Shown here: positions 19,005 to 62,229 of the stretch, in pieces
How the letters are laid out: each line of letters begins with the position of its first letter
Position numbering within the stretch: the first letter of the stretch is position 1
Assembly: GCA_050084515.1 (NCBI GenBank)
Contig: CM114271.1
Coordinates: forward strand, 46,996,001 to 47,060,000
Reading direction: 5' to 3'
DNA: 64,000 nucleotides
Origin: Blasia pusilla
Taxonomy: Eukaryota
The notes under the pieces: model-generated
Told to the model about the DNA's origin: nothing
Seen by the model: the letters and a program-made list of their open reading frames with translations, nothing else
Database searches by the model: none
Position numbers and translations under genes: made by a program

Positions 19005-19372
19005 TGTCATGACCATACGGATTATGTCGTAGAGTATGGTGTGCTGGTAGAGGCCATTCCTTATGTAGGACCGTAGTGGCTTGGTAGAGATGTGGTTCCA
19101 TACATAGGGTTGGGGGTTACTCACTTGGGGGTGACTTTCCTAGTAGGGCCCGCTCTTAGGTTGGAGGATATAAGGTGGCTTGCCCTCAAAGAACAATCAG
19201 TTCTTTGAGTTGAGCCTGTTGCGTTGGGAGTTAGCCTTGGTAGTGAGTAGAGCTCTTGGCTATGGTGTTTCCCGCAAGCTTCGACCTGGATTCTCCCATC
19301 GTGGAGTGGGTTTGGCTCGATTGTATGTGATTGTAAACGTGTTTTATGACAGTAGGTCTTTCACGGATTTCA
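19005..19372 (+). repeat. Repeat A1 (368 bp)
   Basis: Direct repeat of 28162-28529 with 3 substitutions by manual comparison. Confidence 0.95.
19169..19210 (+). promoter_or_regulatory. TATA box and predicted transcript 5' end within A
   Basis: TATAA at 19169-19173. CAGTTCTTTGAGT starts 29 nt later and is followed by TTGAGCC. The same spacing is seen at 9797/9828 and 29849/29878. Confidence 0.6.
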
Positions 19373-19384
19373 CTCAAAGAACTG
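19372..19384 (+). other. Putative self-priming primer-binding site
   Basis: ACTCAAAGAACTG directly after A1 is the exact reverse complement of 19198-19210. There is no TGG-starting tRNA PBS at this position. Confidence 0.75.
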
Positions 19385-20616
19385 GAGTAGATCGATGGTA
19401 GCTTCGATTGTAGATCAGTAGGATCTGGTCAGGGCTGATTGTGTACTCAGCCGTGGATGTTCGTGGCTTGTGGCCTATGTTGGAGGTGTGAATCTGGTGC
19501 GTAGTTGATTGAGAAAGAAGCGCCTTGCTGAGAGCTTTCCAACGCGCTGTAGATCGCCGGATTTCGTCAAGGGAGTTGGAAGTTATCAAGCATTGAAGAT
19601 TCTGGTTGTGTTCGACAGTTTTCTGATGTGGAGAGCTTGGAGTGCGGAAGCTCTGTTGAAGTTCATCCAGATCGGGTGAGAGGTTCCTATTGCTACTTGT
19701 ATTGTGATCTCATGTGAAGCTATCTGCTCGAGTGTGTGGAGCGTTGCGGATTTTTGCGTGCATGAAACTTGGCGGAAGCGCTGTCGGATTTGCGGTTCTA
19801 GAGGTGTATGGACAACAAGTTTGTCTGATTTTTAGCTCGGAGTACGGAGCTCAAAACCCTAAAGCGTTTTGAGGCTTCGAGGCAACTCGTGGTAGCTCGG
19901 GGCGAGTGGGCGTGAGAGGCGGAGTAAGGAGCAAGGAGCAAGCAAGCAAGCAAGCTTGCTTGCTTGGGCGTGAGGCAATTTTTGCAGGATTTGGGATTTG
20001 AGTTTTGCATAACTGGTCACCCATCTTTGGGCTATTCTGCCTGGAGGACGCTTAATTGCCGAGTTCTTAACTATGCCTTGCATGCATTGTTGTAGCTCAT
20101 TTGGTGTTGTTCGGAGATGTGTTAGGCGCTTTATGCATCTCAGGTTTTGGTTGATGTACCTCTAGCGCATAGTACGGTGTAGCCTCTCCATGCGGTGATA
20201 TTTTCAGGGTCTTTGCTGGCGTTCGACTAGCACGTCATCGACTGCGGCGGAGTAGCTAGCTATTTGCGTTAGAATTGTGTGGTGGGTTTTGTGGATTCAG
20301 AGGGCACCACGTTTGGTGGATTGTGTTACCTTGATTTCCATTTGCGATTGGAGGGTTGTCGTTGGATTTCTGTGTTTGGATCCCCTCCATCGTGCTTTTG
20401 CTTGCTTGGCGCCCATTGTTAGGGTTGACGCTGATTTCCAGAGTAGTGTTACTCCTGTGTGCTACCGGTAGTGAGGCTGGAGGGATGACGAGTAGATTGT
20501 GGGAGACTTCTTGTGGTGATGACAAGTTAGGTTGCCTACACCCATAGCTAGTAGAGCTAGAATAGTATAGCGACATCGACGTCACTTGGTAATTTGGTGG
20601 TGGTGCGGCATCGGCG

Positions 20617-22100
20617 TTGGTCATCACGGAGTCTGCCGGGTGGTCGGTTGGGGACCGTGGTGCGGACAGTGGTGGTTTCACACGGAGTGGATTTAGGTAT
20701 CGGCTACATTTTCCACTTCCGACGATTGATGAAGAGGAGGACGAGGGTGTTCCAAACACCGAGTCTTCTACGTTGTTATCGAGTGTTGCAGCTCCATTGA
20801 TTTGGGACATGGACGGTGGATATGGGGCCATGAAGGGCCCACGACGATACTCGGGTGCAGTGGGTACCATTGAGTTGGAGGACTTCATGCAGGAGTTTGA
20901 TACGTGGTGTGATATGCAGATGTTGCGGAACGCCACGTTGTTTACACCCTTCTTGGCTTGGAAGGGGTTGTTTCAGCACTTGGAAGGACCACCCATGGAT
21001 GATTACCATGAGTTTAGGAAGGACCATGTTGCTGAGATTGAGGCATGGAGACAATATTGGTCTCCAGGCTATGTGTCTATCACCCATGGTGGTATTGGTA
21101 GTAGTGCTCCTACTATGCCAGCCAGCCCGACGCTAAGTGGTACGAGTACGAGCCGAAGTGGGGGTACCAGTGGAGGTACTAGTGGGGGTACTAGTGGAGG
21201 TACTAGTGCCCCACCATCGTTTAGCCTGGTTTCAGAGTTCTTCAAGAGGTTGAAGAAGAACTATCAAGGAGTGAAGACGGAGAAGTTGAGGAATCTTCAG
21301 GACTTTGAGCGAAAGACTGGTGAGAGTCTTCGTGAGGCATACACGCGTATCGACGCTTGATTTCAGATTACCAGGGTGTGCGAGGATCGAGCGATCCGAT
21401 TTTGGTATGGGATCTTGGACAGAGATTTGCGCCGTAGGGTACGTGATGCTACTCTTATGAGTGATGATTCACCCACATTGACCCATGTGTTTGCTCTATC
21501 TGAGAAGATTGAGCTTAACATGGTGAAGGAGAGAGTGGTGACATCCGCATTCAGTAGGGATACAACTACTACTTCTCGTGTTCAGCCGCCCACCTCATAG
21601 TCTCGTAGTAGTGGTGGTGGTAGTAGTAGTGGGAGTCGTGGGGGGTACACGCGACCTCAGTCAAGTCCTAGAGGGACATTTGTGCAGAGACCATTGCCTT
21701 CATTTGCTGCCCCGCAGCAAGGACAGTCATGTTGGACATGTGGAGGTGATCATGTTAGGAAGTTTTGTCCCCAAGAGGATGGGAGACGGACTTTGGAGGA
21801 TGGGCCTCAGTCGGCCCTAACTCAGTGTGATCATTGCGGGAGACTAGATCATCCTCGAGAGCGTTGCTTTGATCTTCATCCAGAGTTGAGATCAGGCCGT
21901 GGCCGTGGTGGAGTAGCTCCGAGAGGCCGAGGTGGTAGAGGTGGTAGGGGTGGTAGAGGTGGACCGGTGGTTGGAGAGCCCACGGTGGCTACCCTACCTA
22001 CCTACGACGCAGTCGCCTATGGTCGCCAGATTGAGCAGATTGGAGCGAGTGGTTGGCTACTATGGTGGTATCCAAAGATAGATCAGGTTCGGGAGCAGGG
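20617..22100 (+). pseudogene. gag-like region, frameshifted
   Basis: ORFs 20617-21360, 21376-21600 and 21682+ carry a Gag-like FERKTGESLREAY motif, two zinc knuckles (CWTCGGDHVRKFC, CDHCGRLDHPRERC) and an RGG tract. Homologous to ORF 56705-58342. Start codon uncertain. Confidence 0.85.
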
Positions 22101-22649
22101 GCTTCCACCTCTTATGGAGGGGATGATCTCTCTTATATGGCGAGAAAAGACAAACGAGTTGAGGCATCACCGCAGCGATTCTGAGAGGAGCCACTCGAGC
22201 GTCGAGCCACGTGGTGCTCTTGTGGAGTTGGACCCGAGGGATGAGGCGGGGGAGGCGAGGCTAGGCTTCCCAGTCATTCTTGTTGTCCGAGGTGCTTACG
22301 ACTCCATCCATGGTTCCTACGTTGACCTATTGAGCGGCGGTGGGGATCGAGGTATCTACATCGCGTGTAGTAGACACGGATGCAACATCCAATGCAAGAT
22401 TGCGGATGGAAACTTCGGTGTTGGGATCCCCATTGTTTTGCCACGGAGTCGATGGCTTTAGGAGTTGACTTAGCTCTTGTATTTGATTAGCGACCACGTT
22501 ATGTGAACGTGGGGGTATTATGCTACACGTGTTGAGGTGGATGAGGGTGTTGCGGTGAGCGACCCTCTATGTCGGAGTAGCATTGAGTACCGGTGCTACT
22601 TGGCGGCAAAGGCGTCAAAGATGGATGCATTACCCCCCGCCAGCCATTG

Positions 22650-23110: not shown

Positions 23111-23459
23111 GGGCTCGACCAGGAGGGTCTTCCCCAATGAGTGTTAGCATCTCGTGGGTGGTTTTAGTGGAGTAGTCACTTGGCTAGGAGACTTTTGGAG
23201 GGTAATGTTTCGCTATGGATTCTCCTGCGCATGAGGAGGTAGAGGAGGTCCCTATTTTTGCAGCAAAGTGGCATCCTCATCGTTGGATGTGCCACTTTGG
23301 AGTTCAGCGGTGCACTACGGCAAGAGGTTGATCGCCTAGTGCAGGAGGCTTGGTGTGAGGTGTTATACCTCACGAGGAAGAGGAGGCCCACGGCGGACTC
23401 CTACTTCGGTCCATTAGGTTATCCCTTTGGATACTACACCCATTGTATGGGCAAGTATC

Positions 23460-24410
23460 CGGAGGGTATTTGTGTGTTAGATCTCTTTGGTGGGATTAGC
23501 ACTGGTTTGGCTGCGATGTTGCAGGCCGGTATTCTGTCTTGGAGATACGTGTATGTGGAGCGAGATGAGACGGCCCATAGAGTCTCATCTCGACATATTG
23601 GTCGATTGATGTGAAGATACCATGAGTTGTTTCCGCCATCACTATTCGTGGGTACCGGCGTGCTTTACCATCACACATTGCATTGTTGAGGCGCGCAGGA
23701 CCTTGAGAGGGTTGGTCCTGTGGATTTGGTGATTCTTTGGATGGCCATGTCGAGGGTCATACACGTCTTTGGTCGTGGTGAGGGATTACATGACCCTAGG
23801 TCTCGATTGTTTTGGGAGATGTTACGGGTGTTACGACATCTTCAGTTCATCGCACGTGCTCTAGCTTACATTCGGAGAATGTTCCATTGTTGGATGACAC
23901 TCGGACCCGGATGATGGCGAGTGTTCATGAGGTGCGGTCTTGGATTGGACCAAGCGGTGTTGTTGGATGTTGAGTTGGCTCGCGTGCACATCGCCCACGC
24001 TTGTGGTGGACAAACTTGTTGCCTAGGGAGGTTCTACGTCGAGCATATGATGCGGTCTGGCGGGATCCTCGCCTTACAATGGATAGTATCTTGAATCTTG
24101 GCGACTTTCTCAAGTGGTGAGGGTTATTGATCGGTCACCCATGGTAGTGGTGAACCGTGTGGGCGACCTAGGATGGCACTACCCACATTTGTGAGTTTTC
24201 GCGTCACATGCCCACGGGGAAGGTGGTCCCGGGCTTGTATGGGATTCTCATGTGCGGCGGTTGGTGGAGCCTAACGCTGATGAGAGAGAGCGTGCGATGG
24301 GATTTACTCTTGGCGTGGCGGCGGTTGCTTCTATTTTTGAGGCTTCACGACGTCATGTGTTGGGTCAGGCCATGGACTGAATTGTTTGACTTGGATTTTG
24401 AGTCTTGGTA
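23460..24410 (+). pseudogene. C5 cytosine DNA methyltransferase domain (DNMT3-like) inside pol, frameshifted
   Basis: Motifs in canonical order: VLDLFGGISTG (23474-), YVYVERD, WPC (23742-23750), ENV (23875-23883), SRAHRPRLWWTN (23980-24015), ERERAMGF (~24285). Confidence 0.9.
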
Positions 24411-24779
24411 TGACCGAAGCGTCGACTTCGGGACTATGTCGTGGGTCTTCCATCCCTTGTAATGAGCTCGATGGCTCCGGACGGTAGAGGCATCGGTAGA
24501 GGCAGGAGAGTAGTATTTTGCATCCTTGGAGTAAATGGGATGTAATGGTGGGCATGTGGAGTTGGTTGCTCATCTTTGGTGGAGGAGTTATTTGCTCGGA
24601 TGATGGTGTAGCTAAGGGTGTACCATCTTGTGAGGGGGTTGCGTAGCGACCAATGGCATAAATCCTCTCCCTCTAGTATGCCGGTGGAGGAGACTTGGGA
24701 GCCATTACTTGGGCCCAAGCTTACGGGAGGTGAGAAACGACGCTGACCACGGTTCCTACGTGCTTATAGGAGTTGTTTT

Positions 24780-26130
24780 GCCTTTAGCATGAAGGAGTTG
24801 GGTTCTCTGGTTGGACCGGTATACATGGATTGATTTGGCTAGTGATACGCCAATCTTCCGTCGTCCCTATCGATATAGTGATATGGAGAGGACTTGATTG
24901 AGTAGGACGTTGGACCTTTTGGAGGTGGATTAGTGGAGTTGTCGCATGGAGAGTATGCATAAGCCTTTGTCATGCTCGCTAAAAAGGATATGCATGGCAA
25001 CTACGGATAGGCGGATGTGTGGAGATTACCGTCCTATCAATCGGCAAACCAAGGCCGATAGGTATGCCATGCCTACACTGAGGAGATCTTTGATGTGGTG
25101 GGACATGCAAAGATTTTCAGTATTTTGATCTTCGAGCAAGATACCATCAATTGCCGATTCGGGAGAGTGACAAGGCCAAGAGAGCATTTTGGGGTGTCAA
25201 CTCTCATGGCAAGGATTGTTTGTACCGGTGGAAATTCTTACCCTTTGGGTTGAAGAATGCACTGCCGAGTTTCAAAGAGTGATGGATAGGATCCTAGCAG
25301 GGTTGGATTTTGTTCGGTGTTACATTGATGATATCTTGGTGTTCAGTAACACGGTGGAGGAGCATCAGATACATTTGCAGATGGTGTTTGAGCGGTTGAA
25401 AGCTCATGGTCTACGTTTGGATCCAGGAAAGTGTAAGTTCTTCCATGAGGATGTTGAGTACTTGGGTCATGTGATCTATCCAGGTGGTTTGGGAGTTCAG
25501 CAAGCAAAGGTGGAGGCTATTGCACTTGTTCCGCGTCCGGTAGATGTGAGTAGAGTTCGAGCATTCATGGGATTGGCGAACTATTATCGGAGGTATGTGA
25601 AGGGATTTAGTGCTATGGCAAAGCCTTTGAACCAATTGCTGAAATCAGATCAAGAGTGGCACCGGGAGATGATCAGAGAGAGCTTTTGTGGAGCTTAAGG
25701 CCCAATTGGTGGTGGCGCCTATCTTGAGGAGACCTATCGAGGGCGCCCATTCGATTACACACCGATTGGAGTAGGTGGGACTTGGAGCGGTGTTGACACA
25801 ACATGATGATGAGCACATGGAGTTTGTGGTGGCCTATGCAAGTCGTTCGAATAATGCAATGGAGGCGCGCTATAGTTCATATGAGGGAGAGTGCTTGGCA
25901 AGAGTGTGGGGTGGGCACACTTTAGGTGTTACTTGTTTGGCACCCGGTTTACCCTTATTCGATCACCAACCGCTCAAGTGGTTGATGGAGTCGGACAAGC
26001 TTACTAAGAAGGTTTGCACGGTGGGCTCTTATCTTACAGGAGTATGACTTCCAGGTGGTACATAGACCTGGAGTTGCCAACCTTGATGCTGATGGGTTGA
26101 GTAGGAACCCATGTACTAGCCAAGAGGATA
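24780..26130 (+). pseudogene. Gypsy-type reverse transcriptase and RNase H, frameshifted
   Basis: RMCGDYRPIN, LPFGLKN, CYIDDILVFS, YLGHVI, FMGLANYYRRYV, GLGAVLTQ, VVAYASR, DHQPLKWL, DADGLSR. Confidence 0.93.
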
Positions 26131-26499
26131 CAACAGGGGCTAGATGGCATGGCGAGGTTGATGAGGAGATGGTGCCAGGTTGGCATGCATCCGCCTTTTT
26201 ATGTTGGTTAGGTGGACTCTAGTATGGAGGACCACATGATATCTTACTCTAGTCGAGGGTAGATGGCCACCTTGAGATCCTAAGGTTGGAGATGGTGGTA
26301 CGGATCAGCGTGATATTCATGATGATGCGTTGGTGTTGGAGTTCCTACGGACCGGTAGGGTGCCAGGCATAGTGAGTGCCAAGGAGCGAGACCGTGTTCT
26401 TCAACGTGCTAAGAGGTATCGATTGGAGGGAACACATATTCTCGCGTGTGGGAGGATGGTAGAGTATGAGTAGTGCCACATTTGGCTCGAGAGAGCGCG

Positions 26500-27330
26500 A
26501 TTGTGCGACATGCCCATGAGGAGTTGGGACATTTTGGGGTAAAGCGACGTATAGCTTACTCCTTGGCCAATATTGGTGGCGTGGCATGCATACTCAGTGC
26601 GGCTAGATTGGTGTCACGTTGTATGGTTTGTGACCGGTGAGGGCATCATTTAATGCCCCTACACCACAATTACACCCCTTGCCTATTATGGGGTTGGGTT
26701 ACCGTTGGAGTGTGGACTATGCGGGACCGTTATCGTTGGATCACGACATCATCGATATGTGTTGGTGATGGTGGAGCACTTCTCCAAGTGGATTGAGTTG
26801 GTGGCATTACCGGACAAGGCGAGTGAGGAACGGCGTATGCGTTTTGGATAGAGTGCTTAGTCATTTTGGTGCACCACGGTGAAGTGTTGACCGACCAGGT
26901 ACAAAGTTTGTGGTGAGTTTCAGGTCTTGTGTGACAAGGCGTTGATTGATCATCGGACCACGCGTCTTGAGATCATCCCAGGCGGATGGTTTGGCTGGCG
27001 TGTGGTTCAAACGGTGAAGAGGGCATTGCGCAAGTATGGCCTCTGAAGGGCATCTTGGAGACTGGGATATTCGTTGCCATGGTTAGCCATGGGGTATAGG
27101 TTCGATCGCCAAGCATCCTTGGCTTCCTTCTCACCTTATTTTTCGTTTATACGGCCGAGATCGGACTTGCCAAGATCAATTGCGTCGGGAGTCTAGTGAG
27201 GTGGTGAACCTTGATGACCAGAGATGTGGATGAGGGTGTGTTCTCGCGAGTGGAGCTCTTCGGAGAGTTATGCCAGCGACCTTTGAGAATCTTGCCATTG
27301 CTCAACACGGGGATACGTTGCGGTATGCAG
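26500..27330 (+). pseudogene. DDE integrase, frameshifted
   Basis: HEELGHFG...CMVC zinc finger, WSVDYAGP, VEHFSKWIE, VLTD, HP.ADGL, SFSPYF..YGR. Confidence 0.88.
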
Positions 27331-27739
27331 GTTATCGACCATCGATTCGTAGGTTCCATGTGGGGACCATTTGGGTGGAGGTTATCGACCATCGTGTTAG
27401 CTTCGAGGTTCCATGTTGGGGGACTATGTCTGTTTGGAAGGACCATGTGCGTAATTGTGCGCCATGTCATCTTCCAAATGGATGGATGTATTGACCCAAG
27501 CTTAGCCATTTTAGCTTGAGGTGCATGGTGTTAACGCAGGAGTTCTCTATGTCTATTTGGAGACAACGTTTGACGGAGGCACTATTTTGTTCGTGAGGTG
27601 TTAGTTTGGAGTTCTCATGTTGGAGGGTCGTGATGGAGTTGTTTGGAAGGACCATGTGCGTAATTGTGCGCCATGTCATCTTCCAAATGTGGATGGTATC
27701 TTGTTGACCCAAGCTTAGCCATGATACGTGCTAGCTTGA

Positions 27740-27882
27740 GGTGCATGTTTGTGGGTCTCTGTGTAACGCACCCGTATGTTGTGTGTGATCGGTGTTCTAG
27801 GGGTTGGCACATGATGTGTTTGACTCCACGTTTGGATGTTGTTCCATCTACTTGGAAGGTGGGTTTGTCCTCGATGTACTTA
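27740..27882 (+). pseudogene. PHD finger at the C-terminus of pol
   Basis: RCM...VCDRCSRGWHMMCLTPRLDVVP...CPRC, matching the intact C4HC3 finger at 51240-51374. Confidence 0.8.
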
Positions 27883-46799: not shown

Positions 46800-47150
46800 G
46801 TGCACACAGAAGAACACTTTGAAGAAGAGGAAAAAGAGTTCTTGCCCTTGCTTGACTCTTCTGCCTTTGGGAAAGAACAGGTGGAACCAATGGTCATGCA
46901 CTGTTTGGGAGTGATGGAATCATCACATGGACACTTGTTTCCTTTCTTTCTTTCTGGACTCAATCCTCAGGACCTCTACCAGTACATGATGGTGCTCAAC
47001 AAGGGCTTGTCGAGTAGTAGGCCAGCTCTTTTCACGAGAATGCTTCATGTTGTCCGGAATGCAGATGATGAGTTTCAAGAAGTACGGAGAATAGTTCAAG
47101 ACAGATTCTCAGAATTTGCACCTTTCAATAATGCAGCTGCCTGTGCCTGA
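46800..47150 (+). CDS. GSTH: Hemerythrin-class GST, exon 3 (spliced CDS 1641 bp, 546 aa)
   Basis: Acceptor CTTTCACAG|. Encodes EHFEEEEKEFLPLL (HxxxE motif) and MESSHGHLFPFFLSGLNPQD. Ends TGA. Confidence 0.88.
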   Translation: MHTEEHFEEEEKEFLPLLDSSAFGKEQVEPMVMHCLGVMESSHGHLFPFFLSGLNPQDLYQYMMVLNKGLSSSRPALFTRMLHVVRNADDEFQEVRRIVQDRFSEFAPFNNAAACA

Positions 47151-49600: not shown

Positions 49601-49620
49601 TAAAGTCTAGGCTCCATTTA

Positions 49621-50922
49621 ATGATTTTGCGAAGATGGCAACTAGGGAAAACAGTGGTTGTAGTTGTAGTAAGTAAGAAGTGGAGACTAGATCATATGGA
49701 CATCAAGAATGCCTTCTTGAATGGATATCTATATGAGGAGATATACATGTCTCAGCCACATGTATATGAGCATCTAGAGTTTCCATTGCGGGTATGCACG
49801 TTAATGAAATCTGTATACGGGCTCCAAGAGCTTGGTATGGCAAGATTACATACTTCTTGCAAGAGTTGGGCTTTAGGGTTTGTGATTCAATTCCTCGCTC
49901 TGTATCTTGAGAGGATAAGGCCATACAATTATCATCGTATTGTATGTTGACAACCTTTTGATTAATGGAAGTACTAGGGATACGGTACAACAAGTCAAAC
50001 TAAAGTTACGGGTAGAATTTGATATGAAGGACTGAAGAGAACTCAAATACTTCCTTGGTGTTGAGTTTATCAGGATTGGAGAGAGCATGTGGTTATTACA
50101 ACAACAATATGCTTTTCACATACTTTCAAAATATAATATGACGGCTTCTAATCCAATCTCTACATCATTAGACCAGACTGTCAAGTTGAGAGTGGATAAA
50201 GGAGAGTTGCTTGCAGTTTCTAATATATATATGCGTATGGTTGCAAGTTTGATGATCTCTTTGAATATCACTAAGAAAAAATTGAGCTACGCAATTGGCC
50301 TAGTGATCCAATTTACTCAAGCACCTCGAAAACCTCATCTTCATGTTGTGAAGAGGATTATGCCGTATGTGAAATTTTCTATTCAATTTGAGCTTCAATT
50401 TGAACCTTCTTCTAGTTTATAATTACATGGATTCAAAGATGTTAATTAGGCAGGAAGTATGTATGATAAACATTCCATATCTGGTTATTTATTTATTTTG
50501 GGAAGCGTTTGGTTATAAGTTGGGCTTCAAAGAAACAACCTATAGTTGATTATCTTCAATAGAGGATGAGTACACAGGAGCAACCAATGAAGCATGTAAG
50601 GCGGAGTAGATTACTTGGTGAGATTGGTGTGAACTCGAGTGTTAGTAACTTAGGATCTAGTGTAATGTATATAGATAATATTTGAAGCATCAAGCTTGCT
50701 AATAACCTTGCGTTTCATGCTAAAAAAAAAGCATGTTGATATGCACTACCACTTTATCAAAGAGAAAGAGCTTGCAGGAGAAATTGATCTTGTGTACATT
50801 GGTAAAGATCAATAAAATATTGATATCTTTACAAAGGCATTGTCTAGAGATAAGTTTCACATATTTAAATGCAATTTAGGTGTTAGAGATATCAATTTGA
50901 GTTTGAAGGGGAGTATTGAAGA
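49621..50922 (+). mobile_element. Decayed Ty1/Copia RT-RNase H, PPT and first 9 bp of the 3' LTR
   Basis: HMDIKNAFLNG.LYEEIYMSQP, YVDNLLI, LKYFLGVEF, WASKKQP, KHVDMHYHFIKE, DIFTKAL. PPT GAAGGGGAG at 50905-50913. Confidence 0.9.
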
Positions 50923-51233
50923 TGTCGTGCGCATACACATCGCTACACAACATACATCGCTGTCATCGAACACACACAAAAATACACACGATCCCATGCT
51001 AACTCATGGCATTCATACACAGAGGCGAGAAGTACCAAAATATCTCCAATCGCCCCCCTAGCCGGTGGTTAGCCTCTAACTCCAGATAGCCATCTATCCC
51101 TACCTACCACGACATACATCTCTAGGACGCTAAGAGCAAAAAAGCGGGGTGCTCATGTGGCCCCATCGTTAGTCGCCTTCCTATCAACCATATCACATAA
51201 AAAGTTGGAATCGAAACCTATCTAGTATCTCCT

Positions 51234-52500
51234 CTATGTACATCTGGGACACATCCATCGTCCCCGAGGAACCTTGGTGAGAGGTGGCGTTAGACATGCC
51301 ATATGCCAACCTCTCGAACATCCATCACAGACTAGCATCGTGGCCGCACAATGAGCAGAACCACACAATATACAACGCAAGCCTGTAGGAACTACTGTTG
51401 AGCTCGGATCTATTGTACCATCAATGTTAGGAAGGTGACATGGCGCACAATTACGCACATGGTCCTTCCATACCATACCATCGTGTCCCTCCAGCAAGAG
51501 AACACTGGATGGCAAAACGTCACGCACTCTCAAGATAGTGCATCCTGCAGTCACTTCCAACGTTGTCGATGCCGTTTGCTACAAGTAGACATAATCTCCT
51601 TGATGAAACCTCCGGATAGTCGGTCAATAACCACCACCTCGAATAGTTGCATACCTCAATGTATCTCGATGCTGAGCAATCGCCAAGTTCTCGAACGCCA
51701 TGGGCATCACTCTCCGAAACAACTCAGTCCTCTGAGAACATGCTCGCATCCATACATCTGGGTCATCAAGGTCCAGCAACTCACCAACATCTCGACGAAT
51801 GGCCGCAAGTAAATCTGGCTCTTGGCCATAAAGTAGCAAGTACGGTGAAAAAGACGCTAAGGATGCATGCCTGCTGAATCTCTATCCCATCGCCAACCAT
51901 AGCAATTGGAGGTCCCAATCTCCTAGGTGACCTCTCTGCAAGCCATACTTGCGTAAACTCCTCTTCACCGTCTGCACGACTCTCTCTGCCAATCCATTTG
52001 CCTCGAGTTGATCTCGCGAAGTCGTGCGGTGGTCGATCAGCGCCTAATCACACAAGGCGTGGAACTCACCGCGAAACTCGATACCCTGGCCTATCAATAC
52101 CTTAGTCGGTACGCCATAATGACTCAACACTCTCTCAAGGAAGGCATAAGCTACTCCCTCACTCGCTTTGTCAGGCAATGCAACCAACTCGATCCAGTTC
52201 GAGAAGTGCTCGACCATCATCAACATATAACGACTGTGACGCTCCGTCAAAGGCAAAAGTCCTGCAAAATCCAAACTCCATCTATACCCTAAGCCCATGA
52301 TAGGTAATGGATGCAACTGTGGAGTCGAAGCATTGAATGATGCTCGGACCGGATCACACACCATGCACCTTGCAAAAAATTGCTGAACGTCAGTCTGCAT
52401 GCCTTGCCACCAATACTAAATCTGGAGCAAGCTGTACGTCCGCTTCACCCCAAAGTGACCCAACTCCTCGTGGGCATGCTGCACTAGTCATGCTCTCTCC
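51234..52500 (-). pseudogene. DDE integrase with C-terminal PHD finger
   Basis: ORFs 52044-52400 (WSLDFAG, VEHFSNWIE), 51624-51839 and 51234-51560 (CILC...CDGCSRGWHMACLTPPLTKVPRGRWMCPRC). Confidence 0.92.
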
Positions 52501-52839
52501 GAAGGATGCGGCACTACGCGTACTCTGCCATCCTCCCAAACCCTCAAAACATGTGTCCCCTCCCAACGAAACCGTCTTGCCCGTTATAGGATCCGATCCC
52601 GCTCTCTAGCACCCACGGTGCTCATAACGCTGCCAGTACAAAGGTACTCCAAGACTACTCCATCATCATGAATATCTTGGCCACCTGTCGTCTCCTCACT
52701 GGCCTCGGGATCCAAGGACTCTCCACTAGACCTCGCCATCGAAGTCTCCATACTCTGGCTCTCCATAGTCAACGTGCCTAAATAGGCTGACGCATGCCAT
52801 CCTAGCACTGACTCCTCATCACTCTCTCCATGCCATCGA

Positions 52840-54150
52840 GCTCCAGTCGCATCTAGCTGACTTGGGCATGGGTTACGACTTAATCCATCTGCATCCTTGT
52901 TGAGCGTCCCAGGTATATGTACCACATGAAAATCATACTCCTGCAACAACAGAGCCCATCTCGCAAGCTTTCTTGTAAGCTTTTCGGACTCCATCATCCA
53001 CTTCAGTGGTTGATGATCAATGATGATGGTAAAGGGGTTGCCAAATAAGTAACATCTGAAATGCACGACAGCCCACACTACAGCCAAGCACTCACCCTCA
53101 TACAAGCTGTACTTCGCCTCTGCAGCGTTGTTCGAGCGGCTAGCTTAAGCCACCACGAACTCTCTACCCTCATTATCATGCTGGGTGAGCAACGCTCCAA
53201 GCCCCAACATGCTCCAATTTGTGTGCAACTGGAAAGGACGCCCGTTTATCGGTCTCCTAAAGATGGGAGCAGACGTCAACCTGTCCTTGAGCAATTGAAA
53301 TACTCGCTCCTGCTCATCTCCCCATTGCCACTTGTGATCCACCTTGGTCAACAAGGTCAGCGGCTTTGCAATCGAACAGAATCCCTTGACGTACCCCCGA
53401 TAGAAGTTTGCCAATCCCATGAATGCGCGAACACGGCTCACATCTGTGGGGCGTGGAATGCGTGAGATAGCCTCTACCTTCGTCTGCTGAACACCAAGGC
53501 CCCCTAGGTATATCGTATGACCCAAGTACTCAATCTGGTCGTAGAAGAGCTTGCACTTGCCTAGATGTAGCTTCAGCCCAAGTAATTGCAATCGTCAAAA
53601 CACCTCCTCTAGATGTCGCTCAAGCTTCTCAACCGTGGCGCTAAAGACTGCGATGTCATCAATATAACACCTAGCAAAATCCAGACTAGCCACTGGTATA
53701 AACAATCCTTCCCGTGAGGATCGATGCCCCAAAATGCCGTCTTCTGCCTGTCCTCCAATCTGATAGGCAGCTGATGGTATTCGGCTCAAATCCAATGAAC
53801 TGAAAACCTTTGCGTGACCAATCACATCAAAGATCTCCTTAGAGGTGGGCATGGCATACTTATCAGACTTTGTTTGCCAATTGATAGGTCGGTAATCCCC
53901 ACACATCCGCCTATTCGTCTAGTTGCCATGCACATCCTTCTTGGCGAGCATGATCGTGGCAGATGCATACTCCCCATGCGACATCTCCACTAGTCCTGCT
54001 TCGACCAAAACCTGGCTCCTACTTTGAATCAGAGCCCTCTCCATATCACTGTACTTGTAGGGTCGTCGAAATATTGGCGTATCACTCAACAACTCAATGC
54101 GGATCCGCGGTCCCTTCAGCGTACCCAAATCCTCCATGCTAAATGCAAAG
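52840..54150 (-). pseudogene. Gypsy-type RT and RNase H with stops, frameshifts and a deletion
   Basis: MCGDYRPIN, CYIDDI, YLGHTI, FMGLANFYR, LGALLTQ, ECLAVVWAVVHFRCYL, DHQPLKW, DADGLSR. Confidence 0.93.
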
Positions 54151-54569
54151 CAACTCCTATAACTCTTGAGGAATTGATGTATTCGGTGCCGCTCTCCTCC
54201 TATCAACTTAGGGCCCATATCTGGCTCCCAAGTCTCCATCGTGACTACGGTAGGACTCTCCGGCGCGGATATCGGTGGTTGCTATGGTGCAACCCCATCT
54301 CAAACAATAACACTCGACCACTCTCCTGCAGCCAAGTGCAAACTCTGATCTCCTCCACATGCAGTGCCCTGAACTACGCTCGATGCTATAGCTATCATCT
54401 CCTAGCGTACCTGCAAAACATCCCCAAGAAGTCCAAGGATGTCTCTCCCGATCTCCCTTGGTGTGTCGATCTCCTCGGGTATCGCCCCCAGCCACTGCCT
54501 CCATCGTCTCGGTAGGCATGGGGCTCACCAACGCAACCGTTGTGATCTGTCGCGATCTCATCCGACTTT

Positions 54570-55550
54570 GCTCAGCCACTCCCAAGCTGAAGATCCATGT
54601 CAAGAAGTTCAGGTCCATCGCCTGAACCAAGACATGGCGTTGTGATGCCTCTAATACTGACGGTACTGCCATCACTCCTGTGGGAAATCCCATCGCCCGC
54701 TCTCTCTCGTCGGCGTTGGGCTCCACCAACCTCTGAACACGATCATCCCAAACCAAGCCAGGATCGGCCTCCTTGTATGCATAGGAAGCGGAAAAAGTCA
54801 CAAACGTGGGAAAGGTTGCTTGCGGCTTGCCTACCTTGTTGACCACACTCAACGGTGGTCGATCATCGTGCCTCACTATCTCTGAGCGACGACCTGGATC
54901 CAGAATGGAATCCATTAACAAATGAGAGGGGCGCTCCACTCTTGCATACGCCCTCCGTAACATCGCATGGGGCACCAAGTTGGTCCACCATAGACGCGGG
55001 CAATGGGCTCTAGAACCTACACTCGCCGCATCCAAGAACACTAAAGGGCTGATCTAGGCACGCACCTGATGAGCACTCATCACCACCTGTGACCTAGAGT
55101 CTCTTAAGATCCGCACATTCTCCAGAATTTAGGTTGGAGAACGAGACTGGTGCTCCTGCAACTGCCCTAAGACCCTCAACATCTCCCAAAACAACCTGGA
55201 CCGAGTGTCAGCCAACACTCGATTGGCCTTGACTGCCTCGTCCAACACTCGATTGGCCCTGACATGGCCAATCGGAAATGACCAAATTAGTGGTCCCTAC
55301 CCGCTCTAAGTCCTGCGCCCCAAGCAACAAAATATCCCTTGATAGGGAACTCTAGTACCCCTGTACCGCGGACGCAGATAATAAGTCACGAAAATGTAAG
55401 CGTAACTGCGCCACATGTCGTAGTGAGACGCACCTTGCAACATCATCCCTCTCCACATACAGGTACTGCTGTATTCACACTCTTGCCTGCAAAACAACAG
55501 CTAACCCGGTGCTAATCCCTCCAAAGAGATCTAACACTTGAATACCCTCC
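54570..55550 (-). pseudogene. DNMT3-like cytosine methyltransferase domain inside pol
   Basis: VLDLFGGISTG (~55505-55537), YLYVERD, WPCQG (catalytic Cys codon 55262-55264), ENV (55114-55122), SRAHCPRLWWTN, ERERAMGFP...QRHVLVQAM. Confidence 0.92.
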
Positions 55551-56641
55551 TCCGAGGTACACCACACAATGGGTGTGGTATCAAAGGGTGTCATCGTAGC
55601 ATTCCCTGCTACCTCCGATTCCTCAGACCCGTCACGCTTCGGTGCAAACGCCTCGCTCCACGCGGTCTGCACGTGCTCATCTGCCAATCGTCGAAGCTCC
55701 TCAATCGAGCCCCATAGCGGCACCTCTCCTCCACAGAATGATGCGATTACCATAACACTCCTCTCCATAGAAATATCAGGAACGGGAGTATCCTGTACAT
55801 GGACATGTCCCTCAATCAAATCACTAGGCCAAGTGATGGCACTGCTAAATGGTGCTAAGGTCGCCATCTCTCCTGGTCGTTGCTCGATCACTACACCTGT
55901 GAATCGAATGGGTAATGAGCTAAGGTGCCCATCACCTGACTGCCATCCTGGTGTGTAGGACGTTGACTGCTCCCAGTAATCCAGGGCAAACCCCATCGGA
56001 TATAACACTGCTCCACCAACCAAGATGTCGTAGGACTCTGCATCAGTCACTATCGCCTTGGCTCGCACCAGTGACTCATCTGTAGGACGTCCCAGGCCAA
56101 TCTTCACCATGACCTCCTGTCGGGTAATATACTGTGTGATACTCACTCCACCCAAGGATGTCTGTATTCGGAATGGACACAACTCTACATCGGCTCTTGT
56201 CAAGCCCAATCCTCTGAATGACGCTTTCCCCAACATCAGGGGTTGCGCTCCTAAATCCAACAAGACGCGCTGCGGACTGAAAGCTCTACCTTTGGGACTC
56301 ACGAACTGGAAGACCTCTCCTTGGTTATCCAAAAACATAACACCAGGAGAAGCCATGGTATGCTCTATCGCGGGTCTAGCGGACATCTGCGCCATCCTTG
56401 CAGCCGTAGCCTGCCATGAATCTGACGTGGACGGCCCGAGCATCCGCTCCAAGGGCAGGTCCATCACCTCCTCTGCAATAACCTTTGAACGTGATGCAAG
56501 AACTCCAACTCCACACTCACATAGCGTAGGGGCCAGCCAAAAAGCCTCGGCGGGCGTATCCCCAAACGTCATAACATCGAAAGCAGAAAATAAAGGAGCG
56601 CGGTACATAATGGTGGCCGCCCCCAACAACGTGCTTGACAC
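55551..56641 (-). pseudogene. pol N-terminus with retropepsin-like protease, in frame with DNMT motif I
   Basis: ORF 55475-56641 contains RVLLDLGAQPLMLG and YDILVGG, and runs without a break into IQVLDLFGGISTG. Confidence 0.85.
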
Positions 56642-56704
56642 ATGCCCCTCCTAAGCATCAACAATAGGAGTCGTCGTACTTGCTTCTCCCATCCCCCTCC
56701 GTTC

Positions 56705-58342
56705 CTACACACCAAGAACATCACCAACTCTCCAGGAACTCTGATCAGGACCCATCAATAGGGTCCTCATCGCCTCAGACAACGTGAAAGAATGAGGAAG
56801 CCTAGTCTGTTTCTTGGCATCCCCTTGATGTGGATCCAACTCTGCGGCTGCTCCACGCGTCACAACTATGGCTGCCTCCATCTGGGCAACCCCGCACATC
56901 CAACCAGGATCCTCCAGATCTCTGGCTGCTCCATATGATGTCGATGCCACGGATCCGGCATCGGGTAACCTCAATGCCATAACGGCAATCTGCTCGTGTA
57001 GCTGCTGTATATGAGTAGCCATCCCAGCCTCACATCCAGCGTCTCCCTCGGCGCATCTAGATGGTGGTACTCTACCTCCTCCACGAGCAGGTCCACCATC
57101 GTGTTGGGAAACTCCAGCTCCTCGTCCCCCAACAGGACCACATGGTGCACGATCTCTAGGCCCACTCGGATCGTCTTCTCGCTCTGGTGCCCTCTTTGGC
57201 CCTCGGTCCGGACGTAACTCAAGATGTAAACTGAAATACTTGGCGCGTGTATGACCATACCTCTGACAATAATCACACTGATAACCTCCTGGTGCAGCAC
57301 CATCTCCTCCTCCATGCTGAGGCACACGTCCATGACCCTGACGAGTGCAATCGCGCTGATGATGGGCTCCACCACATGACCAACAAGTAATAGTAGGCGG
57401 CTGCTGTTGAGCCGCATATGAAGGCATGGCCCCCCAATATCCTCCCTGAGCTCGTGGTGCCACAGTCGACCTATCTCGGAGTCCACGTTGCTGCACATGT
57501 AGTGCAGGCAATCGTGATTGCTCTCGCCCAGAACCCATGGTGGCTACGCTCTCCTCCGCCATGTTGCGCTCAATGTTCTCGGTGGTCCTAAAAAAATCTC
57601 TCAATGTAGGGGAGGTGTTCATAAGAAGCACCCCTTCCCGCACTTGTGTCCGCAGGGTCCGGTCCAACATCGCGTACCATGACTGGATAGCCTGAGCCTC
57701 TATCACCCCCTGAGTGACGTTGATCAACCGGCGCAAGCGAGTGTAAGCCTCACGCAAACTCTCACCCGGGCGCCTCTGGAAGTCGTGGATGCTCCACAAC
57801 TTCTCCGTCCGTACCCCCTGGTTGCTCGCCCTCAACTCAGCAAATAACTCAACTACAGGGTTGAACCTGGGACGAACCCAACTAGACGGTGCAATTGCTC
57901 CCGTGCGAGTGACCCCTCCTAAAATGTCACTAGTGGAAGAGGAAGTAGCCTCTCCTGACTCCTCCTCCTCATCTGGGAACGGCTCCATCCATGACACATA
58001 ATGTGGGTCATAGTAGAGCCTCCACGCCTCGATTTCAGGTGCATATCTTTGAGAGAACTCATGGTAATCGTCCATGGGCTCCCTCTCTAAATGTTGGAAC
58101 ATACCGTTCCATGCTGTAAACAGGTTGAACTCTCTAGAGTTCCTGGCCCGCTGGGAGTCACACCAACTCCTAAACTCTGCCATGAAATCGTGCAACTCAA
58201 TCGTGCCTGCTACACCTGAAAACCTATGCGGTCCTCTACCCCGATCGTCCATCTCGTACGCCCAACTGGTAGGACCACTCACAATGTGTGGCGATGTGCT
58301 CACAAACTCCTCTACACGCTCCCCCTCGTCTGAAGACGACAC
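56705..58342 (-). CDS. Gag-like protein of the retroelement (545-aa open frame, start uncertain)
   Basis: FQRRPGESLREAY, zinc knuckles CWSCGGAHHQRDC and CDYCQRYGH. Homologous to 20617-22100. Confidence 0.8.
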   Translation of the reverse strand: MSSSDEGERVEEFVSTSPHIVSGPTSWAYEMDDRGRGPHRFSGVAGTIELHDFMAEFRSWCDSQRARNSREFNLFTAWNGMFQHLEREPMDDYHEFSQRYAPEIEAWRLYYDPHYVSWMEPFPDEEEESGEATSSSTSDILGGVTRTGAIAPSSWVRPRFNPVVELFAELRASNQGVRTEKLWSIHDFQRRPGESLREAYTRLRRLINVTQGVIEAQAIQSWYAMLDRTLRTQVREGVLLMNTSPTLRDFFRTTENIERNMAEESVATMGSGREQSRLPALHVQQRGLRDRSTVAPRAQGGYWGAMPSYAAQQQPPTITCWSCGGAHHQRDCTRQGHGRVPQHGGGDGAAPGGYQCDYCQRYGHTRAKYFSLHLELRPDRGPKRAPEREDDPSGPRDRAPCGPVGGRGAGVSQHDGGPARGGGRVPPSRCAEGDAGCEAGMATHIQQLHEQIAVMALRLPDAGSVASTSYGAARDLEDPGWMCGVAQMEAAIVVTRGAAAELDPHQGDAKKQTRLPHSFTLSEAMRTLLMGPDQSSWRVGDVLGV

Positions 58343-61300
58343 AGAAGGAGATCGAGGTGGTCTCTCACGTGGAGACCCTTGAAACCTCGCACCACTCCCG
58401 GTAAACCCTCAAGAGCTACTCTCAGGTCCAATACCTCGCCTCTCAAAATCCTGAAAGGACGCCGTGATGGCTTTCGTGCCCCTCTCACACGATCACTCTC
58501 AACCTCACGAGTAATCCCTCAATCACTCATCCCAAACATGCGGCACTCGATCTACACTCTCCCTCCTTGAGACGTGTAACGTGCGGCAACAAGCGGCGTG
58601 ATGTGGCAAATCAACCAGGCTATAATCTCATCGACAACCTACCCTCAACTCCGGACATCCCACACAGGTCTATGTCCCCTAAACCCCATACATAAATGAT
58701 GCTCTCAGCATCCACACAACCCAATATCCCCAAATAAACTACCCAAATCCCAGAATCCCTCACGCGTGGAGGGTAAAGGACTAGAATGGGTAACCTGAAC
58801 ACATGTCAATGTCGCTCCTCAGCAACTGCAAATCTCAGTCCCAACTCGGTTGTGGAGACAACTCCTCCAATCACCAAGTAATACTCCTCCCATACTGACG
58901 CTGCTCAAAACTCCTCGATAGACAGTGCGATTCCAGCGGAACGGTGCGGCGTTGCAGGTGGCATGGAATGGCTATGAAGGGCAGGGCCCTCGATGGTGGG
59001 ATGCGGCACTCGGCGGCATACCCTCCTAACTCAACAATAAACCCACACTCTACTCCACAATGATGGTGCGGCTCTGCGATCGAGACGATACGGTGTGGCC
59101 ACGAGCGGCACGGCGCGGTACTCGATCGTCGTCGAGCGGCTACCAATCACAACATAGCAGCATGAAATCAAAACTCAAACACCATAACCGGAGGTCATCT
59201 ACCATCACTGGTTGATGATGAAACTGCGATGACGATGGCGGCCAAACCAAAGTATGTGGTGGCGGAGCAAGTCAAAGAATCAATGGTGGTCGTGGAAGAC
59301 CCTCCACTTCGTAATGGCGGCAATGGCAACAAAAGGGTGGACAAAGGCCGAATACGGCTCTGAGCAACGCTCGGCAACGGCAACGGCCGACAGTGGCCAG
59401 TGGACGGTGGACCATTGACGGTGACGGTTGACCATCTATAGTGATGGATGACCATTGACCGGTGACGGTGACTATGACGGCGACGGCGCCGCCGGCGTGG
59501 CGGCTGGTTTAGGGTTTGAACAATTTAACCCTAAAAATCGCCTAGCAATGGCAATTTTGCAAAATTCACCATAACTTTTTACTCGCAAATCCAAATTGCG
59601 CATTGTTTGTTGCACAACTTCACGATCTATGACGGTGTCAAAAAATATTTGGAACTAGACATTCCAGTTAAAACAACTGATAGGGACTGTCGTAAAGCCC
59701 AATGTTTCCTTCTCCTACACAAAATTTGGCAGCGCTTCCGCGCTGATTTCTCCCAACCAAAATGTAAAACCTATAAAAATACAAATCAGCAAGCTTCATG
59801 GTGCTCCCAAGAGCACCAGCATGGGGCAATCCGCCCCTATAATCAATCCCTATCAGAAATTGGGTAGCGCTTCCGCGCGCCATTCTTCCACACGAAAAAT
59901 CGGCAAATGCAAAGAACAATCAAAGCAGCCCTTGCTCCGGTGAGCACTCCATAGCACTTCAACCAATTTCTTATTCCTATGGTATTGCTTGTATTTGGTA
60001 AATTTTTAGTCATATGTGTCATCTCTATCCAAGGGCACTCGTGCCAGGAAACGATGTCAAATCGTGCCATAATTTTAGCGTGTATTACGATTTAAAATTT
60101 TTTCTTTGTGTGAATTGCCTTTTTCTTGATTTTCACCACAAGAAAAATTCAAGCATCTAATTTCAAATTTGAGCGCCCAATTCAATATCAATTGCCTCTC
60201 CTTCAAACCGCAAATGCTATGTCCTTACAAGACCTCTCTAGATTTGAGTGTCCATGTCTTCTATGATTCGATGTCAGAAAGTACTGAGAGTTTGAGGTGT
60301 AATTTTGAGAGTCCATCATTGGTAGATGAGTTCTTGGATCAGTTATAGTATTGCTCATGTTAAGGATTGTCAAAACTCTGCCTACTTTGACAAAAATCTC
60401 ATATTGTCAACAACCTACATGCACGTAATGGAACGTCAAAATTGTGCCACCTAAGAATTTGGAGAAGTAACAATGATTTGAGGATTGGCTCTCCTCTTGC
60501 ATCATATCACCAAATCCCAAATTTTTTTCACATCTTTGCTCTCTCCATATTGGTAGCACCTCAGAACCGTCTACCACAATACGTCCTTCAATCTTTCCAC
60601 AACCATACACAGTTCCAAAGACCTCATAATATCTTCAGATCCACATAAGATCCAATCCAACCTCGTCTGATTTTATTAAATAAAAATAGCCTCCCAGTGT
60701 CACACTAGTACTTACTTCCCTTAGGCAATGGTTGCGCACATCTTCACCTCACCTCTTGGTCGAGCCGCAATCCCTTATGCCAAAAATAAATAGGTCTTGT
60801 TTACTGTCTTGTTACACCTTTGTTTACTGTTTGATCATATGTCTTGAGTACTACTATTGCATAGCAATTGGTGAAGTTGGATATGGAAAAATGTGTTGAA
60901 GCGTACCCAATTTCGAGCCAATCCACTCGGGTGTTCCTTAATGGGTGCAATGCCATAAATGCATCTCTACCACTAAAAGGAAGGAGCGCTCGGGGTGTGC
61001 CCTTAGGGGTTGAAGAAGCTCCAAGAAAGTCAGGTTAGAGAGCCGTGTGATGGGCAAGTGAGAGCTATACGGAAATTAGATGCTCATATAGTGTTGGAAT
61101 GGTCCATATGCGATCGCGGTATGAAGAGATTCTTGAATGACACCTTGATGAGTTTTTAGTTGTGCTTACTTCTCCTCCTCCCTCCTATCATACCATAGAA
61201 GTCGTGCGCAATCAAGAGAAAAAAAATTGACATGAAATTGTGCAAAGATTGAATCTAATTTGCAGGCGCTTTAGGAAAAAAATCATTCTCATTTGGAATT

Positions 61301-62229
61301 GGGGGTTAAGAGGATTTTTTCCTAGAAAATGTACAACCGAATTAGCCTCGATGTGTTCAAAAGGGGGATGGGGTCATATTACTTCTAGAGTTTAGAGTAT
61401 CTCCTCATGGATTGTTGTTATAGAGGCACAAATTAGTCAACTCTGGTTGCTTGTACGGCTTGCGTGCTCCTAAGGTTTGCATTGATGGAGTCATAGGGTC
61501 AACTATCTTCCTTGCTTTTGCAAATGACAATGAGAGTCTCTTTATGGAAGGATTCCAAAAATTTGTTCCAAGAGGAAATGCAAGACTATTCCTCCAAGAA
61601 AAAGGCTACATATCACCATGAATAATTGACTTTCGACTTTTGTTGTGTGCCATGTTTTATAATTTGAAGAATGATCCCTTCGCTCCATTTTTATTATCCA
61701 CTTTGCTGCTGTATGGCGTAGGACCGCACGAACATCACTCTCCTATGAAATTCAACAAATTTTCATTGCTCTATTAGCTCTACACTTTCTAAGGGATATT
61801 TGTATTTTAGCTTAGCGCCACATACTTTGTCGAATTCATCTCAACACAAAAATTGACCTTAAGCCAGAGTATGACCTTATGACAATGGGCTACCCATGTC
61901 CTTCGTCTCACATGTACACAATATAAAAAAAATCCTTCTGATCAGTGTTTTCTTCAATACATGATGCCTCTCTGATTTGACTTGATGACTTCTTCTTTTC
62001 ATTAGGAAGTGGTGGTCCTAATTGACAATTGCATTAGGCAAGGCAGTGAGGCAATAGCAATGGCAATGCTTCCATTAGTGCACCAAACTCTGCTAAAGAT
62101 ATTTCATTCCCACATATCCACTCGTGAAGGATGTGTTACTCAAGATTGAAATTTCCAAAGATAAGTTTCCTTTGTGGTCCTCAATCCACATCAAAATTTT
62201 ATGAGATGAAAATTATGGAATTGCATGGG

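Follow-up and report, generated by a model that had tools for sequence, protein, structure and literature searches.

The closest described system to the elements reported here is KnitGypsy-Dnmt3 of the alga Klebsormidium nitens, which the main text of de Mendoza et al. 2018 (PMC5890265) presents as a Gypsy pol with a non-permuted Dnmt3-type domain. According to the legend of Fig. 4c of that paper, its repeats are arranged as in DIRS elements and its domains are those of Gypsy, and the text gives it a Ka/Ks below 0.2 and regards the capture as confined to the K. nitens lineage. The survey of that paper included Physcomitrella, Selaginella and angiosperms and no liverwort, and the words 'Marchantia' and 'PHD' are absent from its main text. 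The same text reports that SymbioDIRS-Dnmt3 of Symbiodinium methylates CG de novo in yeast. In Sarre et al. 2025 (PMC12344493), DNMT3 genes embedded in transposable elements are cited 'in streptophytes', the land plants surveyed being only Arabidopsis and Physcomitrella, and a 2026 preprint lists 'streptophytes (Gypsy-DNMT3)' as known. We found no paper on DNMT-bearing retroelements in bryophytes (liverworts, mosses), met Gypsy elements with split repeats only in the 2018 figure legend and found no paper on a PHD-bearing Gypsy integrase, points on which the supplements of the two key papers may bear. Here we describe elements of this kind in a 64,000-nucleotide stretch of the genome of the liverwort Blasia pusilla (GenBank assembly GCA_050084515.1, contig CM114271.1, positions 46,996,001 to 47,060,000 of the forward strand), the whole of which is called the window below.

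The window holds two Ty3/gypsy-like copies with a DNMT domain, copy A and copy B, and a fragment of a third, fragment C (Table 1). It is likely that these are relics of a streptophyte Ty3/gypsy-like family with two open reading frames (ORFs), in which ORF1 encodes Gag, protease and a DNMT3-like domain, ORF2 encodes reverse transcriptase (RT), RNase H, integrase and a PHD finger, and the methyltransferase serves, as we propose, to mark the element itself. They lie in two blocks, at about 18-28 kb (copy A) and 51-60 kb (copy B), whose GC of 0.47-0.55 stands out from surrounding AT-rich DNA with GC of 0.29-0.39, and the DNA identity between the two copies is only 65-75%.

In copy B the methyltransferase motifs I (VLDLFGGISTGL), II (YLYVERD), IV (WPCQG), VI (ILENV), VIII (RAHCPRLWWTN), IX (ERERAMGF) and X (QAMDLN), along with the stretch LFWEMLRVL, occur in non-permuted order and are readable across two frames. 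Copy A has WPCRG as motif IV in yet another frame, and motif I of fragment C translates as VLDLFGGINT at about 10949-10981. Tblastn with P0004, a Marchantia protein that carries PF00145, aligned its residues 860-1255 with copy B at 55606-55232 in frame -1 and 55215-54382 in frame -2 (55-58% identity, E 6e-118), and matched copy A from 23459 to 24467 in three frames (E 5e-56 and 2e-39). A 281-residue piece of copy B (55053-54208) matched 20 longer proteins, including seven Marchantia polymorpha models, one Sphagnum fallax protein and, among the best matches, a protein of Calypogeia fissa (1.2e-69, 60% identity); PF00145 is precomputed in 15 of the 20. Our own Pfam scan found PF00145 in five of eight relatives (2.9e-12 to 1.5e-8) and in two intact loci from metagenomes, L031 and L035 (1.8e-13 and 5.4e-12). 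The same scan found it in none of eight ORF pieces of the window itself, and in one of six read-through frames with X at the stops, where the match (E 0.29, 10.9 bits) lay below the cut-off of 22. A comparison of 14 ORF1 proteins with 32-82% identity to P0004 showed no variation in PCQG, ENV, WTN, ERERAMGF, Q-A-x-D-L or the F and G of motif I, and the invariant columns concentrate in the DNMT domain. An earlier sequence-only reading of this DNA had claimed such motifs in two diverged copies and motif I in a third, with the protease in frame with motif I. All three sites exist by tblastn and translation, and a single ORF of copy B on the reverse strand (55475-56650, 391 residues) holds both LLDLGAQ and motif I. 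Its identification of a real C5 cytosine methyltransferase is borne out by the alignment of PF00145-bearing relatives and by the motifs that these share, and the PF00145 check that it proposed came out negative for the window's own pieces and positive for the relatives.

That reading had also called the domain DNMT3-like, an assignment with which our searches of the PDB agree. In single-sequence PDB searches the top matches of P0004 and of the intact domain of L031 were DNMT3A, 3B and 3C only (1.7e-8 and 1.4e-7), followed by bacterial enzymes and tobacco DRM at 1e-3 to 7e-5. With a profile of 14 relatives DNMT3A/B/C (29 distinct sequences) were matched at 7.8e-15 to 1.4e-11, M.HaeIII at 6.8e-7, DRM at 4.4e-5 and M.HhaI at 5.6e-5; DNMT1 appeared in neither the single-sequence nor the profile searches. 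Alignment of the relatives to DNMT3A further supports the non-permuted order of motifs. The PDB profile search, standing in place of a phylogeny with plant DNMT3 and DRM, thus supports a DNMT3-like domain. A search of the ESM Atlas returned generic PF00145 clusters only, and Pfam identified no PWWP or ADD reader domain in ORF1, the PHD finger on the integrase being found instead.

The DNMT domain is a recurrent part of these elements. It is present in all three window copies that reach its position, and a metagenome scan gave at least 313 relatives among the 600 matched stretches listed, from which 80 loci were kept; most of these share the broken state of the window copies, and L031 and L035 are intact in their ORF1 and ORF2 parts. 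Between L031 and L035, a pair with dS of about 1.2 and so near saturation, the ratio of nonsynonymous to synonymous substitution (dN/dS) was 0.16 for the DNMT, 0.17 for the protease and 0.07 for the PHD finger, compared with 0.04 for RNase H and 0.03 for both RT and integrase. Between copies A and B, for which tblastx pieces favour the conserved parts, the values were 0.28 for the DNMT, 0.25 for RT and RNase H and 0.28 for integrase and PHD. The intact relatives show that the DNMT is under purifying selection. The view that the domain belongs to the element and is no chance capture is thus upheld by its presence in the window copies and metagenome stretches and by the dN/dS of 0.16 in an intact pair.

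A search of 1.84 billion representatives produced 2811 matches with E<=1e-3, 879 with E<=1e-10 and 280 clusters with E<=1e-30. Among the long representatives, 20 of 23 have the order RT-RNase H-DNMT-integrase(-PHD) and three have the DNMT before RT. The named proteins with the former order come from the chlorophytes Haematococcus lacustris, Monoraphidium neglectum and Chromochloris, and those with the order protease-DNMT-RT from Marchantia, Calypogeia and the zygnematophyte Closterium. The family had been proposed as a land-plant lineage; relatives in Marchantia, Calypogeia and Sphagnum agree with this, but confinement to land plants does not hold, as Closterium has the same order and chlorophytes the other. 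A tree was made from 124 DNMT domains (255 proteins examined, 191 near-full, with 65 of unknown architecture and two short ones excluded). On it the two domain orders require two changes, a number as low as which was obtained in none of 500 shuffles, and 27 rows of the window type form a clade with a Shimodaira-Hasegawa-like approximate likelihood ratio test (SH-aLRT) support of 99. The tree is rooted at its midpoint only and does not fix the direction in which the DNMT moved. Two of the algal relatives among P0149, P0246 and P0304 have a G-patch between DNMT and integrase, and P0304, from Monoraphidium, has a Tudor-like domain (PTM_DIR17_Tudor, 3.8e-5) after the PHD finger. Two proteins, P0064 and P0288, are filed in NCBI under the names of bacterial metagenome-assembled genomes (Spirochaetia and Minisyncoccia) and most likely stem from eukaryotic contigs that binning assigned to bacterial genomes.

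A conserved stop codon separates the DNMT from RT. In L031, ORF1 (1369 residues, Gag-protease-DNMT) and ORF2 (1047 residues, RT-RNase H-integrase-PHD) lie in the same frame with one stop between them, and L035 has an identical layout. The stop reads TAG CAG TTA in L031, TAG CAA TCA in L035, TAG CAA CCA in copy B and TAG CGA CCA in copy A, the first three of which fit UAG-CAR-YYA, the context of leaky stops in plant viruses such as tobacco mosaic virus. Of 28 loci in the subfamily closest to Marchantia, 26 have a stop as the boundary codon (TAG in 18, TAA in 8), followed by CAACCC or CAACCT; as expected from a stop after the DNMT, Marchantia models of 1150-1330 residues terminate just past the domain. 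A second conserved stop upstream of the DNMT, as seen in L053, was considered and rejected, since a stop at that place occurs in only nine of 75 rows, the others having a sense codon. The order protease-DNMT-RT in the sequence-only reading is correct. With a conserved stop ahead of RT, however, the DNMT of the window's lineage forms the C-terminus of the abundant Gag-protease product and lies outside Pol proper.

At the other end of the coding region, the integrase of copy B occupies a single frame interrupted by stops and gave matches to Integrase_H2C2 (2.4e-16), rve (9.9e-8) and, at 51374-51240, PHD (4.9e-10), the last of which was also found in L031 and L035 (2.6e-10 and 4.3e-10). Pfam scans of copy B, L031, L035 and the long representatives found no chromodomain at the integrase C-terminus. 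The closest solved relatives of the PHD finger are those of CHD4, PHF12, PHF21A, KDM5A/B, ATXR5, KAT6A, DPF3, UHRF1 and AIRE. Most of these fingers read histone H3 tails with unmethylated K4 or R2, not H3K4me3.

The ends of the elements are unusual in that their repeats are split. Repeats A1 (19005-19372) and A2 (28162-28529) of copy A are 99.45% identical, with unit B1 placed 3 nt before A2 and unit B2 directly after it, and L036, L039 and L053 have the same A1...B1-A2-B2 layout. All four of these complete elements start with TG and end with CA, have short inverted-repeat termini (TGTCATG...CACGACA) and are flanked as whole units by perfect 4-bp target duplications (TAGA, AAGG, CATA and GGTC). 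Such duplications with TG..CA ends are the mark of a DDE integrase and not of a tyrosine recombinase; the integrase is of the rve type, and the hallmarks of the DIRS order (a tyrosine recombinase and no target duplication) are lacking. In all four, the sequence that immediately follows A1 can pair over 9-16 nt with a site inside A, a pairing that L053 has kept with a different primer-site sequence. The internal pairing site is preceded, at a distance of about 30 nt, by a TATA-like box in copy A and L053. A G-run adjoins the first base of B1 in the four complete elements and in copy B. The layout thus departs from that of canonical long terminal repeats (LTRs) in its split repeats, in a primer site that pairs with the element's own repeat in place of a tRNA and in a G-run beside B1 rather than A2. 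From where the primer site and the polypurine tract lie, the LTR should have the form B-j-A, and the integrated copies are a circular permutation of it. All four elements (copy A, L036, L039 and L053) have an A1 that opens with TG, and in three of them A2 opens with TA, a difference too regular for decay. Repeat searches found no A1 repeat or LTRs for copy B, which has B1 only and no A2-B2 after 50923. Elsewhere in the window, at 1362-2051, 2435-2886 and 29539-30358, there are further repeats in which a unit of about 460 nt precedes a B-like one resembling B1 of copy B (50922-51050), together with an inverted copy; other family members may have left them as remnants of their terminal repeats.

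Table 1. Positions of the DNMT-bearing elements and their parts in the window.
Feature	Position	Strand	Basis or remark
Copy B, Ty3/gypsy-like with DNMT	about 50923-59950	-	
Split-repeat unit B1 of copy B, ending in ...GCGCACGACA	50923..51050	-	78% match to B2 of copy A
G-rich polypurine-like tract of copy B adjoining B1	51051..51060	-	sequence read
PHD finger of copy B, integrase C-terminus, C4HC3 intact	51240..51374	-	PF00628 E 4.9e-10, 39.7 bits, cut-off 24
Integrase of copy B (H2C2 zinc domain and DDE core), one frame with stops	52017..52505	-	Integrase_H2C2 2.4e-16, rve 9.9e-8
RT (YIDD) and RNase H of copy B	52935..54170	-	RT_RNaseH 1.8e-23, RT_RNaseH_2 2.4e-12; tblastn with P0019 residues 305-774
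ORF1/ORF2 boundary of copy B, TAG CAA CCA	54276..54284	-	sequence read; counterparts in L031, L035 and 26 of 28 loci of the subfamily closest to Marchantia
DNMT3-like C5 cytosine methyltransferase domain of copy B	54382..55606	-	tblastn with P0004, E 6e-118
Aspartic protease region of copy B, LLDLGAQ, bounds approximate	55900..56300	-	aligns to P0011, residues 693-740 of which are Asp_protease_2
ORF of copy B, 391 residues, with LLDLGAQ and VLDLFGGISTGL	55475-56650	-	one frame
Gag ORF of copy B, 567 residues, CCHC knuckle CWSCGGAHHQRDC	56705..58408	-	tblastn with P0004 residues 9-984, E 0
Leader of copy B	58409..59950	-	likeness to transcribed paralogues stops at 59950
Copy A, Ty3/gypsy-like with DNMT	19005-28635	+	
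Target duplication TAGA of copy A	19001-19004 and 28636-28639		
Repeat A1 of copy A (TG...CA), with TATA-like box and internal site complementary to downstream sequence	19005..19372	+	99.45% identical to A2
Primer-binding-site-like sequence of copy A, CTCAAAGAACTG, complementary to CAGTTCTTTGAG inside A, self-priming type	19373..19384	+	
Gag region of copy A, two ORFs	20593..22461	+	P0004 residues 1-354, 62% identity
DNMT3-like domain of copy A, three frames with stops	23459..24467	+	tblastn E 5e-56 and 2e-39
Homologous boundary stop of copy A, TAG CGA CCA	24644..24652	+	sequence read
RT, RNase H, integrase and PHD remnant of copy A, heavily broken	24690..27850	+	tblastn with P0019; PHD only E 0.0056
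B1, 3-nt spacer, A2 and B2 of copy A	28054-28158 (B1), 28162-28529 (A2), 28530-28635 (B2)	+	
Fragment C, protease region to motif I, after which homology stops	10098-10981	+	tblastn with P0004 residues 585-892

The window copies differ in their state of decay. The DNMT of copy B has four in-frame stops, at least one frameshift and, just after motif IV, a 30-nt duplication at 55212-55263, which the repeat search detected and for which Tandem Repeats Finder returned nothing. Copy A is more broken, its pol being full of stops and frameshifts and its Gag better kept (62% to Marchantia). Since its pol is broken though A1 and A2 are 99.45% identical, copy A may have moved in trans when already defective, or its repeats may have been homogenised. 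In L036 and L039, G>A and C>T together make up 77% and 70% of the private changes and occur on both strands, which is the usual decay of methylated repeats. Strand-specific editing, considered on account of a sense-strand bias (G>C, T>A), was rejected because the bias is common to all family members.

Expression was followed in three RNA-seq runs with one species label, mapped to positions 42000-61999 of the window. A neighbouring host gene on the forward strand, which served as the positive control, was expressed and spliced, with joints at 43380>45648 and 45804>46798 that are both GT..AG. Reads over copy B run in the sense direction at a depth of 0.05-13.7. Nearly all of them carry four to five consistent differences and therefore stem from paralogous copies, 95-99% alike. 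Reads at 50923 run on into GT+TGTCACG... (21, 29 and 25 reads in the three runs) and, because they continue past this position, the B1-j-A2 junction must be transcribed elsewhere in the genome.

As the DNMT lies upstream of a leaky stop, its output would equal that of Gag and protease. It would probably enter the particle as part of a Gag-protease-DNMT product, then be freed by the protease, and most likely methylate new cDNA either ahead of integration or during it. By way of the PHD finger, the intasome would be tethered to chromatin lacking the mark of active promoters, and the element would arrive already marked like DNA methylated by the host. Our findings suggest that elements of this kind can write their own epigenetic marks. 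A bolder form of this proposal, that land plants harbour a still-active lineage with a two-part chromatin kit (a Gag-level DNMT for the cDNA and a PHD finger of the H3K4me0-reader type for the landing site) and possibly an unusual mode of integration, is doubtful at present. In that mode, the DDE integrase would open circular cDNA bearing a 2-LTR junction at an internal palindrome-like site, an idea drawn from the circularly permuted A-int-B-j-A-B form of the integrated copies with their TG..CA ends and 4-bp duplications. If true, it would link Gypsy and DIRS-like repeat layouts mechanistically.

A number of observations weigh against the two-ORF, self-marking interpretation. Both copies in the window are dead, and few RNA reads cover the DNMT of copy B (depth 0.05-2.85). 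The CpG observed/expected ratio is 0.55-0.78 in the elements and 0.43-0.52 in host DNA and, because that of the elements is no lower than the host's, there is no deamination footprint specific to self-methylation. As the window pieces miss the Pfam cut-off, the significance of the C5 methyltransferase assignment rests on the relatives, and the basis of the DNMT3 class is PDB searches rather than a rooted tree with plant DNMT3 and DRM. Motif IV of the domain reads PCQ, beside the PCN of animal DNMT3. The PHD finger resembles readers of H3K4me0 by likeness only. The largest subfamily has the context CAA CCC, an imperfect CARYYA, with TAA in eight of its 26 stops, and a third subfamily has a sense codon at the boundary in 23 of 27 rows, giving a continuous ORF.

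The CpG result and the position of the domain at the level of Gag, where no peptide bond joins it to RT or integrase unless the stop is read through, would also suit a DNMT kept for another job, such as methylating host DNA around the insertion or acting in trans on other loci or competing elements. The main text of PMC5890265 likewise leaves the role of such domains open. Nevertheless, as part of a Gag-protease product the DNMT would be expected inside the particle together with the cDNA, and we regard another job as unlikely. Very unlikely is a domain that is conserved without being a DNA methyltransferase, for instance one that methylates RNA as DNMT2 does tRNA or that serves as a DNA- or chromatin-binding module, even though the text of PMC5890265 considers RNA methylation in the case of a LINE-borne DNMT that did not methylate DNA in yeast and the dN/dS of 0.16 is looser than the 0.03 of RT. 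This is because invariance among the 14 relatives extends to the catalytic cysteine (PCQ), ENV, the glycines of motif I and motifs VIII-X, and the best structural relatives are DNA enzymes, with no DNMT2 among the PDB matches. Lastly, broken copies whose pieces fail Pfam by themselves are what a one-off capture or chimera would leave, that is, a host DNMT3 gene hit by retroelements or a passenger fragment without a role. Such an origin is extremely improbable given that the DNMT has the same position in copies A and B, in spite of their low DNA identity, and in fragment C, that it recurs in Marchantia, Calypogeia, Closterium and the metagenome relatives, that it is under purifying selection and that the target duplications flank whole elements. 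We thus retain the interpretation of a two-ORF family that carries its own DNMT3-like enzyme.

Other features of the window include the host gene used as a control (42000-48000, forward strand), whose first long exon ORF (42196-43425) fuses N- and C-terminal glutathione S-transferase domains to a hemerythrin-like domain; such fusions are a class known from bryophytes and, like the liverwort proteins among the best matches of the DNMT, point to a bryophyte as the probable host. Two pieces of another Gypsy-type integrase (48945-50602 and 14707-15665) are 69% identical and in opposite orientation. A PIF1-helicase fragment at 6204-6644 on the forward strand (2.8e-6) may derive from a Helitron. There is also a fragment of a DDE_Tnp_4 transposase of the Harbinger type at 63447-63911 on the reverse strand (4.4e-14), and a tandem repeat at 13156-14109 with a 349-nt period, 2.8 copies and 78% matches.

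DNA methylation is the main weapon of the host against transposons, and an element that encodes the enzyme reverses that logic. Gypsy-DNMT3 elements in print rest on one alga; the family is now placed in liverworts, including the genetic model Marchantia, whose methylomes, mutants and long-read assemblies make any gain from transposon-encoded methylation testable in a land plant. The leaky-stop DNMT, the integrase PHD finger and the split repeats with their duplications furnish concrete hypotheses on dose, packaging and targeting. A warning for annotation is that Marchantia models with PF00145 (e.g., Mp_8g17980, 'DNA methyltransferase' in UniRef) are transposon ORFs and not host DNMT genes. 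The anatomical features that we did not find in print are the leaky stop downstream of the DNMT, the integrase-borne PHD finger, and the target duplications and self-priming site that go with the split repeats.

Individual parts of this anatomy are shared with several known systems. Chromoviruses also have a chromatin reader on the integrase C-terminus, but theirs is a chromodomain and not a PHD finger, and they have ordinary LTRs and no DNMT. In Gypsy elements of the Tf1/sushi type, the 5' repeat contains a site that pairs with the sequence just downstream of the repeat, and the resulting self-priming resembles that expected from the primer site of the window family; to our knowledge, split repeats, a DNMT and a PHD finger are not features of Tf1. 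SymbioDIRS-Dnmt3 and SymbioLINE-Dnmt are likewise retroelements that bear DNMTs, but they have dinoflagellate hosts and a tyrosine recombinase or a long interspersed element (LINE) backbone without a DDE integrase. The green-algal relatives in Haematococcus, Monoraphidium and Chromochloris, on whose RT-RNase H-DNMT-integrase-PHD elements we found no paper, have DNMTs 35-45% identical, Gypsy RT and RNase H and the same integrase-PHD tail, and differ from the window family in that their DNMT lies between RNase H and integrase. With KnitGypsy-Dnmt3 the window family shares the Gypsy RT and RNase H, the DDE integrase and a Dnmt3-type domain in the coding region. No K. nitens protein was among the named matches of our searches, which score only roughly 8000 candidates sharing most words. 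The hosts here, land plants (a liverwort, with moss relatives) and Closterium, are different from that of KnitGypsy-Dnmt3, although all are streptophytes, and the Ka/Ks printed for the latter (below 0.2) compares with 0.16 here. Both also have repeats in the order A-coding-B-A-B, by comparison with the printed description (copy A, L036, L039 and L053, copy B having only B1). The likeness is one of printed hallmarks, and among these the split-repeat layout is the strongest link between KnitGypsy-Dnmt3 and the family described here.

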